DNA from: Escherichia phage SKA64
Sequence record: OM362897.1
Length of the DNA stretch: 64,000 nucleotides
Direction: 5' to 3' (one strand)
Made by a program: the position numbers and the translations under genes. Of the stretch, positions 4,157 through 5,740 are shown one piece after another. Numbering within the stretch: the first letter of the stretch is position 1; each line of letters starts with the position of its first letter. Below the pieces are notes generated by a model that was not told the DNA's origin, did no database searches, and saw only the letters and a program-made list of their open reading frames with translations.

Positions 4157-4186
4157 ACTATACTACATTTTACTATTGGTTGTCAA
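4157..4186 (-). promoter_or_regulatory. sigma70-like promoter for the 4145-to-3579 tRNA sub-operon
   Basis: Minus strand reads AACTATTGACAA (-35 TTGACA), about 18-nt spacer, TATAGT. Sits about 11 nt upstream of the tRNA-Gly 5' end. Confidence 0.5.
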
Positions 4187-4459
4187 TAGTTTTATTGAGT
4201 GGGACAGTGACGAGTATCCCTTTGGGTGACTAGCCCTACGTTCGGTAAGCTAACTTAAAATAATACAAAACCAAAGTCAAATATTATTCTTCGTTGCTGT
4301 CGATGGGAGAGCCGCTTCTTCTTTTGCCCCATCCAACCCTACTCCGGTCAAGTTTCAGGTGACTCTTTTTGTGATCAACACAATACTAAGAACACTGTCT
4401 TTCGAACAGACCTTGTGCACAGGATACGACGATCAATCACAGTGCCCTTAATGTTATGT

Positions 4460-4534
4460 TGGTGCTCCCACTCTGAATCGAACAGAGATCCACGGATTAC
4501 AAAACCGTTGTAATAGCCATTATACTATAGGAGC
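4460..4534 (-). tRNA. tRNA-Thr (anticodon UGU)
   Basis: Acceptor GCUCCUA/UGGGAGC with one G-U pair, anticodon loop UUUGUAA, T-arm CUCUG-UUCGAUU-CAGAG, CCA. Some stem mismatches. Confidence 0.5.
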
Positions 4535-4540
4535 AAAGCT

Positions 4541-4617
4541 GGGACTCGGCAGGATTCGATACCTGCAATTCCAGAAGCCTCTTGGCTACTAGGGGTTTAC
4601 CTTAACTCTACAAGTCC
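4541..4617 (-). tRNA. tRNA-like element, identity unassigned (8-nt T-loop)
   Basis: Acceptor GGACUUG/CGAGUCC and T-stem GCAGG/CCUGC with loop UAUCGAAU. Anticodon arm not resolved by hand. Confidence 0.3.
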
Positions 4618-4624
4618 ATAATTC

Positions 4625-4710
4625 TGGCGATGAGTATAGGATTTGAACCTATATCGTTCTTTCGAACACGGATTAACAGTCCGCCGCTTAAACCATTCAG
4701 CCAACTCATC
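4625..4710 (-). tRNA. tRNA-Asn (anticodon GUU) with an unusually long variable arm
   Basis: Acceptor GAUGAGU/ACUCAUC, discriminator G, anticodon arm GCGGA-CUGUUAA-UCCGU, extra hairpin GUUC-GAAA-GAAC, T-arm AUAGG-UUCAAAU-CCUAU, CCA. 86 nt. Confidence 0.5.
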
Positions 4711-4716
4711 TTAATT

Positions 4717-4804
4717 TGGTGGTGAGTGATGGAGTCGAACCACCCGAATCGCAATGATAACAGATTTACAGTCTGCCCCGCTACCCCTACGGAATTAACT
4801 CACC
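4717..4804 (-). tRNA. tRNA-Tyr (anticodon GUA), long variable arm
   Basis: Acceptor GGUGAGU/ACUCACC, discriminator A, anticodon arm GCAGA-CUGUAAA-UCUGU, T-arm GGUGG-UUCGACU-CCAUC, CCA. Confidence 0.7.
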
Positions 4805-4934
4805 TAAATACTAATATTTAAATTCTTTTTAAAATAGCCAGTGTTCACACCACTAACTATGAGTTATCGGTAAAGTGGTTACCGCCACTTGCCGAAGATT
4901 TACTCTGCTAAAGTAAGCTATATTAAAAAGAACT

Positions 4935-5020
4935 TGGCGGTAGATGTAGGACTCGAACCTACACGCCGTTTCCGACTACAATTTAGCAAACTGTCGTGGC
5001 TACCATTTCACCAATCTACC
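4935..5020 (-). tRNA. tRNA-Ser (anticodon GCU), long variable arm
   Basis: Acceptor GGUAGAU/AUCUACC, anticodon arm ACAGU-UUGCUAA-AUUGU, long variable arm, T-arm GUAGG-UUCGAGU-CCUAC, CCA. Confidence 0.7.
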
Positions 5021-5024
5021 AATC

Positions 5025-5115
5025 TGGCGGAAGGAGGGAGAGTCGAACTCCCAAGGCTCTTTCAAGCTCGGCGGTTTTCAAGACCGTTTTCGTCGCCACG
5101 TCGATTTGCCCTTCC
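5025..5115 (-). tRNA. tRNA-Ser (anticodon UGA), long variable arm
   Basis: Acceptor GGAAGGG/UCCUUCC, anticodon loop CUUGAAA, T-arm GGGAG-UUCGACU-CUCCC, CCA. Confidence 0.65.
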
Positions 5116-5123
5116 ATACTTAT

Positions 5124-5153
5124 AATCTAACATAAAATAATGTTAGTTGTCAA
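5124..5153 (-). promoter_or_regulatory. sigma70-like promoter for the 5115-to-4460 tRNA sub-operon
   Basis: Minus strand AACTATTGACAA, 17-18 nt spacer, TAGATT/TTAGAT. Immediately upstream of the tRNA-Ser(UGA) 5' end. Confidence 0.5.
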
Positions 5154-5349
5154 TAGTTTTTTAAAACATTTTACCATGAATGGTGACTCCACCAACCCCC
5201 GTTCTCAACGAACGGTGCTCTTCGAGCATTTATGTCTTCTAATATAACCGTGGCCTTTGTTTATAATGTCTGACATACTTGCCTCATTCTCTGCCACCAT
5301 GATCAGTAGTGGGTTCAAATCACTTGAGCTAATTCATGTTAAAATGTTC

Positions 5350-5424
5350 TGGTGTCTTTACAAGGAATCGAACCTTGACTAAGAGTTTAGAAGACTCCTG
5401 TGCTATCCATTACACCATAAAGAC
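5350..5424 (-). tRNA. tRNA-Arg (anticodon UCU)
   Basis: Acceptor GUCUUUA/UAAAGAC, D-stem GUGU/GCAC, anticodon arm GGAGU-CUUCUAA-ACUCU, T-arm CAAGG-UUCGAUU-CCUUG, CCA. Confidence 0.75.
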
Positions 5425-5426
5425 GT

Positions 5427-5502
5427 TGGTGGCCCTGGCTGGTTTCGATCCAGCTACCTATCGGTTATGAGCCGACAGCTCTCCCATTGAGCTACAGGGC
5501 CA
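5427..5502 (-). tRNA. tRNA with CAU anticodon (Ile2-like or Met)
   Basis: Acceptor GGCCCUG/CAGGGCC, anticodon arm GUCGG-CUCAUAA-CCGAU, T-stem GCUGG/CCAGC, CCA. Overall pattern recalls enterobacterial tRNA-Ile2. Confidence 0.65.
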
Positions 5503-5507
5503 TAAAT

Positions 5508-5698
5508 GTGGTAACAGAGACGCTGACGATTGTAGAGAACCGCTACATTCTCTAAGACCAAGCCCAACTTTCAGCGTAAAAGTTCTTGAGCCGAGACTAT
5601 TCCTTTTCCTCTTTGGTAGCTAACCTCTGAAGAAGTAGTCTCTAACACTACCGCAGTGCAAGCCCCTCTTAACAAAAGTCAACGACCCTGTTACCACA
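5508..5698 (-). ncRNA. candidate structured leader RNA between promoter and first tRNA
   Basis: Perfect 10-bp inverted repeat (GTGGTAACAG at 5508-5517, CTGTTACCAC at 5688-5697) encloses about 170 nt with no ORF of 60 aa or more and no tRNA fold. Confidence 0.3.
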
Positions 5699-5710
5699 CT
5701 TGATGAACGT

Positions 5711-5740
5711 ATCCTAACATATGAAGGATACGTTTGTCAA
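5711..5740 (-). promoter_or_regulatory. sigma70-like promoter for the upstream end of the tRNA cluster
   Basis: Minus strand AACTATTGACAA, 18-nt spacer, TAGGAT. Third copy of the same extended -35 motif. Confidence 0.5.

Follow-up and report, generated by a model that had tools for sequence, protein, structure and literature searches.

Predicted host-type sigma-70 promoters within the tRNA gene cluster of Escherichia phage SKA64

Results

Organization of the tRNA gene cluster

Escherichia phage SKA64 is a Phapecoctavirus, a phAPEC8-like E. coli myophage, and the 64,000-nt stretch of its DNA analyzed here (OM362897.1; the window) contains a tRNA gene cluster on the minus strand. Within this cluster, tRNA genes alternate with non-coding spacers and with three promoter-like sites, P1, P2 and P3, each bearing an exact copy of the 12-mer AACTATTGACAA. 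In the direction of transcription, the features are:

5706-5745, minus strand: P1; 12-mer 5745-5734, -35 5740-5735, 18-nt spacer ending TGT, -10 TAGGAT 5716-5711
5502-5706, minus strand: S1, ~200-nt structured non-coding RNA, predicted first product of P1, directly before tRNA(CAU)
5350-5501, minus strand: unit 1 tRNAs; tRNA(CAU), called Met or Ile2, 5501-5427, and tRNA-Arg(UCU) 5424-5350
5160-5349, minus strand: S2, 190-nt spacer closed by a 17-bp AU-rich helix, ending 1-2 nt before the P2 12-mer
5124-5158, minus strand: P2; 12-mer 5158-5147, -35 5153-5148, 18-nt spacer ending TGT, -10 TAGATT 5129-5124
4460-5115, minus strand: unit 2, seven elements; tRNA-Ser(UGA) 5115-5029, tRNA-Ser(GCU) 5020-4935, S4 4934-4805, tRNA-Tyr-like 4804-4720, tRNA-Asn 4710-4625, an unannotated tRNA-like element 4620-4536, and tRNA-Thr 4534-4460
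4805-4934, minus strand: S4, conserved spacer RNA between tRNA-Ser(GCU) and the tRNA-Tyr-like element
4192-4459, minus strand: S3, 268-nt spacer from tRNA-Thr to P3; a hairpin of 80 nt at the 5' end, the 3' half mosaic
4157-4191, minus strand: P3; 12-mer 4191-4180, -35 4186-4181, 18-nt spacer, -10 TATAGT 4162-4157
3579-4145, minus strand: unit 3; tRNA-Gly(UCC), Gln, Pro, Ile(GAU), an unannotated tRNA-like element (3733-3660) and tRNA-Met(CAU)
3445-3463, minus strand: terminator, AGCCTCC-ttatt-GGAGGCT then TTTTT, -13 kcal/mol; the only strong intrinsic terminator of the cluster

A preliminary description of this DNA had called the three groups sub-operons. A promoter-like site does stand at the head of each unit, but the term is overstated in that a terminator scan found no terminator-like sites between units. 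Because the stretches between promoters lack terminators and the one strong terminator (3463-3445) closes the 3' end of the cluster, the units are nested rather than insulated, and the downstream promoters would add to read-through from the upstream ones. Host RNases would presumably process the resulting polycistronic RNA, releasing the tRNAs and the spacer RNAs. None of the GenBank entries consulted annotates P1, P2 or P3. The curated ASO2A entry does include regulatory features, which in the stretch shown are terminators, and has none at the promoters.

Architecture of P1, P2 and P3

All three sites have a perfect -35 hexamer (TTGACA, 6/6) and the -10 hexamers assigned to them in the preliminary description; of the 17-18-nt spacing given there, 18 nt holds at every site and 17 nt at none. 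A TGn extended -10 is present at P1 and P2 and absent from P3. The -10 match is only 4/6 at P1 and P2, and both the sub-optimal 18-nt spacers and the weak -10 hexamers count against a sigma-70 promoter reading. All three sites lie on the transcribed (minus) strand in the same orientation as the downstream genes, P2 and P3 at 9-12 nt ahead of tRNA-Ser and tRNA-Gly, and P1 at the head of S1. The preliminary description had placed a tRNA or a leader after each motif; tRNAs follow P2 and P3, and a 205-nt non-coding stretch follows P1. P1 starts 3 nt past the stop codon of the upstream gene (5748-6062), and a UP-like tract, aaaatgttttaaaaaa, lies upstream of P2. Predicted transcription starts are at ~A5704 for P1, at ~5117-5119 for P2 (2-4 nt ahead of tRNA-Ser(UGA)) and at ~4150-4152 for P3 (5-7 nt ahead of tRNA-Gly(UCC)), with discriminators (ACGTTCA, ATAAGTA, AAAGATG) that are A/T-rich. 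In a three-way alignment, similarity among the promoter contexts ends at ~16 nt plus ATGT, and we rejected recent segmental duplication as the origin of the copies on this ground.

Copy number and chance expectation

The exact 12-mer occurs three times in the window, always on the minus strand and within the tRNA cluster. These are the copies previously described, with coordinates corrected by 1-2 nt and with G, G and T, not G or A, before the plus-strand form TTGTCAATAGTT. A whole-genome scan, which the preliminary description had suggested, was carried out on P3322, a near-identical genome of 151 kb (99.4% identity over the stretch searched), and found the exact 12-mer only at the three tRNA-cluster sites, in one orientation. 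Allowing one mismatch added four further sites, and with 3 exact and 4 one-mismatch sites in 151 kb, AACTATTGACAA does not mark many genome-wide promoters.

Repetition of this kind invites the explanation that the motifs are non-functional, having either arisen by chance as -35-like words where the spacers are A/T-rich or been left over from an ancient duplication. Chance does yield triple 12-mers: the window has 27 that are present at least three times, where Markov simulations give 4.8, and the triple occurrence of a 12-mer is by itself no rarity. A lenient consensus scan likewise showed no regional excess of promoter-like sites (11 vs 11.0 expected). Against this explanation, the stricter pattern TTGACA-N16-19-TANNNT occurs 18 times in the window where 5.0 are expected (3.6-fold enrichment), and the 1.6 kb that contain P1-P3 have three matches on a single strand, where scaling of the window-wide pattern count predicts ~0.06. 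When the 18 matches were checked against the list of open reading frames, half (9/18) proved non-coding and co-oriented with a downstream feature. P1, P2 and P3 score 10-11/12 relative to consensus and are among the four best sites in 2800-7200. Their common placement on the transcribed strand, with either a tRNA 5-12 nt away or, at P1, S1 directly following, also argues against non-functional words, as do similarity of no more than ~16 nt without sign of recent duplication, hexamers that are invariant while spacers change, and positions conserved in other genera (below). We consider it very improbable that the motifs lack function.

Conservation of hexamers and divergence of the flanking bases

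To follow the sites in relatives, we compared seven phapecoctaviruses with identity down to 85%. The -35 hexamers contained no variable column (0/18) and the -10 hexamers one (1/18), compared with 14/54 in the spacers (hexamers 1/36 vs spacers 14/54, Fisher p = 0.0035), a difference to be read with the small within-genus divergence in mind and with nearly all informative substitutions coming from one lineage (phiWec188 and L013). The single variable -10 column belongs to P1 of phiWec188, where the hexamer is TAAGAT, a change towards consensus, and the spacer has gone from 18 to 17 nt.

Beyond the genus, DNA matches between the window and Justusliebigvirus PATM, L014 and L018 are tRNA-sized only. 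The tRNA clusters of these phages carry TTGACAA-N13-ATGT-TAnAnT promoters, two of them at the P2 and P3 positions: a P2 orthologue, TTGACAA-N17-TAGATT, precedes tRNA-Ser(UGA) in Justusliebigvirus PATM and in L014, and a P3-position promoter lies ahead of tRNA-Gly in PATM (3031) and L018 (3941). Promoters of the same type thus occupy the same places in Justusliebigvirus and IMG/VR relatives. Common to the subfamily are an A-tract upstream, the -35 form TTGACAA, a spacer of 18 nt with (A)TGT at its end, and TAnAnT.

The five bases that extend the -35 hexamer, AACTA, behave differently. Across the seven genomes 5/15 of their columns vary, making them as variable as the spacers, vs 1/36 for the hexamers. 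It is conceivable that AACTA or the inverted repeats described below are bound by a regulatory protein of phage or host origin that acts on the three promoters together, which would make them a true phage-specific class. The five extra bases are identical at P1, P2 and P3 and, within the genus, AACTA is invariant at P3 and differs at P1 by a single C to G change; two PATM promoters have the similar AAAACTA(n)TTGACAA, and a 10-bp palindrome covers the P1 spacer and -10. However, GGTG replaces AACTA at P2 of phiWec188 and L013 with the hexamers unchanged, the five positions differ in 13/15 related promoters, the CTA of PATM is shifted by one base, and the inverted repeats are unlike in sequence and position among P1, P2 and P3. 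A dedicated protein site is therefore improbable in our assessment. The 12-mer is better described as the -35 hexamer joined to the last bases of the A-tract and to a CTA specific to the genus, and its identity among the copies would reflect shared descent or within-genus homogenization of promoter copies, not a separate recognition element.

A separate early-cassette promoter class

A related motif had also been noted before the gene starting at 62655:

62655-62738, minus strand: early-cassette site; CTATTGACAC 62738-62729, 17-nt spacer, TATTAT, then ttatcacGTAGGGCG..., ATG at 62655

CTATTGACAC is indeed present, but it belongs to a different promoter class. This class is repeated and combines a 16-17-nt spacer with a conserved gTATCAC(G/A)TAGGGCGG hairpin at +1; many early promoters have flanks other than AACTA and 16-17-nt spacers. 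The early-cassette class is much larger than, and separate from, the P1-P3 type.

Structured RNAs in the spacers

S1 folds into a ~23-bp closing helix with four internal hairpins (z = -5.3). The structure comprises 76 pairs, 12 of them with changes on both sides and 98% of cells paired, compared with 0/500 shuffles and 0-2 in slid controls. S2 also folds well (z = -4.2); one C-G pair of its closing stem has become U-A with the stem retained, other covariation being weak. S3 overall folds no better than shuffles (z = -0.8). S4 occurs in more than one genus and shows covariation across three lineages. The spacers of the tRNA cluster contain no convincing open reading frames, those in S1 encoding only 25 to 37 aa from a GTG or TTG start.

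An Rfam search of 3300-7000 at gathering and permissive thresholds returned tRNAs only, with no match to S1. Weak RyhB and MicA matches at 3438-3508 were rejected since they reflect the terminator hairpin, as was a YrlA match that overlaps two tRNAs. A search of IMG/VR with the S1 closing-stem pattern gave, besides the known contig, three matches, all unrelated chance occurrences, and in nhmmer searches the S1 and S2 profiles matched neither a paralogue elsewhere in the genome nor any part of the Justusliebigvirus cluster.

Inverted repeats over the promoters

An inverted repeat overlaps each promoter. At P1, the 10-bp arms AACGTATCCT (5734-5725) and AGGATACGTT (5715-5706) extend over the spacer and -10; P2 has 7-bp arms, CTAACAT (5146-5140) and ATGTTAG (5133-5127), and P3 has 7-bp arms, ACTATTG (4190-4184) and CAATAGT (4178-4172), spanning the -35. 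Per 57-nt window, the background of inverted repeats is 0.049 for at least 7 bp and 0.002 for 10 bp. The P1 hairpin (-16 kcal/mol) is retained in phiWec188 (-17.9) by changes on both arms.

These repeats raise the possibility that P1-P3 resemble PeSL cassettes, in which a promoter and stem-loop would also attenuate upstream transcription and serve as a homologous-recombination joint for swaps of tRNA or ncRNA modules and of morons; such a role adds to promoter function and does not replace it. By definition, a PeSL combines a sigma-70 promoter, AT-rich DNA upstream of it and a stem-loop placed over the boxes or between them (PMC2839356); all three sites show the promoter and the AT-rich DNA, and a stem-loop is clear and conserved at P1, with the 7-bp repeats of P2 and P3 marginal against background. 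Promoters of relatives also bear stems over the -35 or -10, such as GGGG...CCCC (L018_1865) and GGGAGTAT...ATACTCCC (L014_905). Furthermore, Klebsiella phage ZCKP1 carries a 700-nt HigA-like insertion just upstream of P3, flanked by a ~24-nt direct repeat. On the other hand, taken singly, the repeats at P2 (shuffle p = 0.08) and P3 (p = 0.03) are marginal, and that of P2 decays in phiWec188 and L013. No U-tract follows the promoter stems and the terminator scan reports none there, and terminator activity of the hairpins is therefore doubtful. Among the relatives examined, only one indel falls at a promoter edge, those of SF1-1 and phiWec188 lying elsewhere, and the ~16 nt shared by the copies is short for homologous recombination. 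We accordingly view the PeSL-like role as a tentative proposal. With similar reserve, the cluster as a whole might be a mosaic in which the repeats double as recombination joints and the long-helix-closed S1, S2 and S4 are conserved functional RNAs not previously described. Such RNAs may act, for example, as processing scaffolds, as stable RNAs released by RNase III in the manner of T4 species I/II, or as anti-defence decoys.

Discussion

Sequence match, position, orientation, statistics and conservation together make it likely that P1, P2 and P3 are promoters for host E-sigma70 inside the phage tRNA gene cluster; their conservation in related phages marks them as real, though unsurprising. 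The preliminary description had proposed a phage-specific promoter class built on sigma70 recognition. Sigma-70-type promoters before tRNA groups are supported by consensus, position and conservation, but the 12-mer does not define a phage-specific class, since AACTA is genus-specific, as variable as the spacers, and missing from one P2 orthologue. A literature search found no transcription start or transcriptome data for Phapecoctavirus or Stephanstirmvirinae, and a search on T5 tRNA-region promoters yielded nothing useful.

In the mechanism we envisage, RNA polymerase would bind with sigma region 4 reading the perfect TTGACA and with the imperfect -10 read across the 18-bp spacer, aided at P1 and P2 by the TGn extended -10; upstream A/T-rich tracts may serve as UP-like elements. 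Transcription from ~5704 would yield S1, tRNA(CAU), tRNA-Arg and S2, while P2 and P3 would start just before tRNA-Ser(UGA) and tRNA-Gly(UCC), respectively; promoter strength and timing are likewise matters of prediction. If active, these nested host-type promoters would sustain the own tRNA supply of a large virulent coliphage, and annotation gains precise predicted 5' ends. Host-type promoters are to be expected in phage tRNA clusters, and the broader interest of P1-P3 is correspondingly limited. Two by-products are more useful as leads. One is the existence of two promoter architectures in the subfamily, the TGn type with its 18-nt spacer and the early cassette, which has 16-17 nt and a conserved hairpin at +1; the other, more novel, is the set of covarying spacer RNAs without an Rfam family, of which S1 is the clearest.

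Comparison with known systems

P1-P3 resemble the extended -10 (TGn) sigma-70 promoters of E. coli in TTGACA, TAnnnT, TGn (P1 and P2), A/T-rich upstream DNA and co-orientation, and differ in the 18-nt spacer (17 being optimal), in the lack of TGn at P3 and in that activity here is predicted. Like E. coli rrn P1 and tRNA promoters, they have a near-consensus -35 and A/T-rich upstream DNA and would drive tRNA genes. Stringent (ppGpp/DksA) stable-RNA promoters are defined by a GC-rich discriminator and a 16-bp spacer. Because both are missing at P1-P3 (18 bp, A/T-rich), stringent control would not be expected, and without the GC-rich discriminator of host tRNA promoters, the phage promoters may fire on during host stable-RNA shutdown.

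In rV5, an E. coli myophage of a neighbouring subfamily, sigma-70 promoters are spread genome-wide and a predicted one, 'PtRNA' (TTGACAA-N16-TAatAT), lies directly upstream of the tRNA cluster (Kropinski et al. 2013, PMC3606486, Table S4). There, one promoter precedes five tRNAs, whereas three are nested in the 2.3-kb cluster of SKA64, and the promoter flanks share no sequence. The T4 cluster yields a polycistronic precursor of tRNAs and the stable species I/II RNAs of unknown function, with one terminator (PMC2330249). SKA64 shares with it polycistronic tRNAs with non-tRNA RNAs and one terminator; in T4 a single MotA-dependent middle promoter precedes the cluster, in place of three host-type promoters inside it, and the T4 RNAs show no sequence kinship to the SKA64 spacer RNAs as far as tested (no Rfam match).

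PeSL cassettes of the T4-type phages RB49 and phi1 are repeated sigma-70 promoters that flank small orphan protein genes in hyperplastic regions, with G/C-rich stems that are terminators (Arbiol et al. 2010, PMC2839356; Comeau et al. 2014, PMC4122927). P1-P3 share with them the AT-rich upstream tract, a stem-loop between or over the boxes that is clear at P1 and marginal at P2 and P3, and, at P1, a location right after an upstream stop codon, as is often seen in PeSLs; in ZCKP1, one moron insertion also adjoins P3. Unlike PeSLs, they head tRNA and ncRNA groups, and their stems are mostly A/U-rich without U-tracts. The closer PeSL analogue is the phage's own early-cassette class, TTGACA-N16/17-TAnnnT-GTAGGGCGG hairpin.

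Genomic setting of the tRNA cluster

A similarity search with window positions 3400-7000 revealed 99.4% identity to Escherichia phage vB_EcoM-P3322 (P3322) and ~99% identity to many other phages of the genus Phapecoctavirus (subfamily Stephanstirmvirinae), which comprises phAPEC8-like myophages. ARAGORN predicted 10 tRNAs, to which Rfam added two genes.

Features of the tRNA cluster and its surroundings
1-2076, minus, large terminase gene, small genes next
3463-3445, minus, strong intrinsic terminator closing the cluster after the last tRNA
3579-5501, minus, tRNA cluster
4191-4180, minus, candidate promoter P3, exact 12-mer AACTATTGACAA
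4720-4804, minus, tRNA-Tyr-like gene (Rfam)
5029-5115, minus, tRNA annotated as tRNA-Ser(UGA) in other records (Rfam)
5158-5147, minus, candidate promoter P2, exact 12-mer
5745-5734, minus, candidate promoter P1, exact 12-mer
5748-6479, minus, three small genes

By eye, two further minus-strand segments, 4536-4620 (kept in the diverged phapecoctavirus phiWec188 and the Justusliebigvirus phage PATM) and 3660-3733, combine an acceptor-type stem with a T-arm-like hairpin; neither was called as a tRNA by ARAGORN or Rfam. Antisense to the tRNA-Gly/tRNA-Gln spacer, plus-strand positions 4005-4062 carry a strong ribosome-binding site, GAAGGAGAAAACC, then an ATG and a 12-codon ORF; by eye, the part from the ribosome-binding site to the ATG is also kept in PATM. 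Where the minus-strand gene block meets the plus-strand block lies a divergent intergenic region (6480-6960) whose core is very A/T-rich and flanked by GTAC-rich repeats (e.g., agtacggagtacagtacttgagtacagagtactac); it may contain divergent early promoters or something resembling an origin. Elsewhere, an 18-nt terminator hairpin, AAGGGGCTTCGGCCCCTT, occurs in three identical copies (25028, 31196, and 43277, plus strand), as does a 16-nt ribosome-binding-site and start word, ATAAGGAGAAATAATG (12620 and 41270, plus; 44595, minus).

Conserved, probable sigma-70-type promoters in the tRNA cluster

The window contains exactly three copies of the 12-mer, always on the minus strand, at the sites named in the preliminary description, whose coordinates were off by 1-2 nt. 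The genome-wide scan proposed there likewise placed it only at the minus-strand tRNA-cluster sites, with no copy in the remainder of the 151-kb P3322 genome. A triplicate 12-mer is by itself unremarkable, because the window holds 27 such words versus 4.8 in simulations. The strict pattern TTGACA-N16-19-TANNNT has 18 matches in the window versus 5.0 expected, a rate at which ~0.06 would be predicted for a single strand of the 1.6 kb that include P1-P3, where three are present. Compared with the ORF list, half of the matches window-wide lie in non-coding DNA and are co-oriented with the downstream gene.

P1, P2, and P3 each consist of TTGACA, exactly 18 nt, and a -10 hexamer (TAGGAT, TAGATT, and TATAGT, respectively), which at P1 and P2 is extended by a TGT directly 5' of it. 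P1 starts 3 nt past the upstream gene's stop codon, with 205 nt of non-coding sequence between it and tRNA(CAU), while the -10 elements of P2 and P3 end 9 nt before tRNA-Ser(UGA) and 12 nt before tRNA-Gly(UCC). We counted variable alignment columns across seven phapecoctaviruses, including phiWec188 (85% identity). Changes affected 0/18 columns in the -35 hexamers and 1/18 in the -10 hexamers versus 14/54 in the spacers (hexamers versus spacers, Fisher p = 0.0035); the sole -10 change, TAGGAT to TAAGAT, moves nearer consensus and accompanies a spacer shorter by one nucleotide (17 rather than 18 nt). The same pattern, with more spacer changes, is seen in an IMG/VR contig from the phiWec188 lineage.

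At the DNA level, the tRNA clusters of PATM and two IMG/VR contigs (L014 and L018) match the window only over tRNA-sized stretches. Nevertheless, their transcribed strand bears promoters built in the same way, among them one ahead of tRNA-Ser(UGA) that shares ...ttttATGT-TAGATT and another ahead of tRNA-Gly(UCC). An anchored alignment of 15 sites yields tAAAAAnnnn-TTGACAA-N13-(A)TGT-TAnAnT. These promoters of other genera are stronger evidence than the seven-genome footprint. Because the hexamers are conserved relative to the spacers and the same build recurs in other genera, P1-P3 are most probably functional sigma-70 promoters, as first proposed, a reading well supported by good comparative evidence. 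The literature on this phage group yielded no experimental start-site information.

The 12-mer extension and a second promoter class

The 12-mer had also been taken as the extended -35 of a special promoter class, a reading that the alignments do not support. The five-base AACTA 5' of the -35 is as variable as the spacers (5/15 columns), is replaced by GGTG at P2 of phiWec188 and of the related contig L013, and differs in 13 of 15 aligned promoters; its initial AA is part of a conserved A-tract, and CTA is genus-specific. A fourth site assigned to that class, CTATTGACAC ahead of the ATG at 62655, is real and falls in a separate class, of which the early region of small ORFs contains at least 15 copies. 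These early cassettes run A-tract, TTGACA, 16-17 nt, TAnnnT, gTATCAC, and then (G/A)TAGGGCGG, which opens a G/C-rich covarying hairpin at the transcript 5' end.

Early-cassette promoters
62698 and 63156, minus, each followed by a small ORF
1000-9200 of locus L010, minus, small ORF after each copy

Since AACTA is variable and the fourth site belongs elsewhere, the phage appears to possess at least two sigma-70 promoter architectures, neither defined by AACTA. Sigma-70-like promoters were also found in the replication and structural modules; the same has been noted for phage rV5 (PMC3606486). Transcripts from P3 are predicted to open with GTAGGGCG (4143-4150, minus), an 8-mer with which early-cassette transcripts also begin, in almost identical register; five of its bases fall within the tRNA-Gly leader, and it is not kept in PATM.

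Probable nested transcription units

A terminator scan found no terminator-like sites between P1, P2, and P3, and the only minus-strand sites reported inside the cluster lie within tRNA-Gln and tRNA-Met. Therefore, the three promoter-headed tRNA groups, previously described as sub-operons, are nested rather than insulated units, and P2 and P3 would add transcription to the downstream tRNAs. P1-P3 differ from host stable-RNA promoters in having A/T-rich discriminators and 18-bp spacers, and thus stringent control is not expected.

Predicted stem-loops overlapping the promoters

An inverted repeat overlaps each promoter.

Promoter repeats
P1, AACGTATCCT-N9-AGGATACGTT, covers spacer and -10
P2, CTAACAT-N6-ATGTTAG, covers spacer and -10
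P3, ACTATTG-N5-CAATAGT, covers -35

The P1 repeat (-16 kcal/mol) is retained in phiWec188 through changes in both arms, and stems also cover the boxes of related promoters in other genera. This layout of promoter and overlapping stem-loop matches the PeSL cassettes of T4-type phages, in which a sigma-70 promoter is combined with a stem-loop and preceded by an AT-rich tract; a role in attenuating transcription that arrives from upstream and in the shuffling of modules has been proposed for them (PMC2839356). The early-cassette class is PeSL-like as well. That P1-P3 themselves are PeSL cassettes is a tentative and rather doubtful proposal. In a single anecdote consistent with it, Klebsiella phage ZCKP1 has a 700-nt insertion directly upstream of P3 (L025 1908-2609, ~window 4195), carrying a HigA-like HTH antitoxin gene with its own terminator and flanked on both sides by a ~24-nt direct repeat. 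However, the repeats at P2 and P3 are of marginal significance, U-tracts are missing from the stems, and the other indels lie away from promoters. We consider P1-P3 a new, previously unannotated example of a known element type. Their interest is modest; greater originality lies with the structured spacer RNAs.

Structured spacer RNAs

Spacer RNAs
5502-5706, minus, S1, ~200 nt directly 3' of P1, ~23-bp closing helix and four hairpins
5160-5349, minus, S2, between tRNA-Arg and P2, long A/U-rich closing helix
4805-4934, minus, S4, long A/U-rich closing helix

The stretch after P1, initially described as a leader, is a structured RNA, S1. Its fold is far better than that of shuffled sequences (z = -5.3), its 76 predicted pairs are 98% paired across eight sequences, and 12 pairs changed on both sides in these sequences, versus 0-2 in slid controls; 0/500 shuffles reached 12. 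The 17-bp closing helix of S2 is conserved with little covariation, and that of S4, which is common to three Stephanstirmvirinae lineages (Phapecoctavirus, Justusliebigvirus, and L018), shows compensatory changes across lineages. No spacer RNA had a match in Rfam. Neither S1 nor S2 has a relative in the rest of the genome or in PATM, and no S1 homologues appeared outside Phapecoctavirus in what was searched. Separately, the 3' half of the spacer S3 (4192-4300, minus) is mosaic: a ~50-nt block of the window is wholly unlike its counterpart in SF1-1 or in phiWec188, with both flanks conserved. The nearest analogy to the spacer RNAs of this cluster is with species I and II of T4, stable RNAs made on the same transcript as the T4 tRNAs (PMC2330249).
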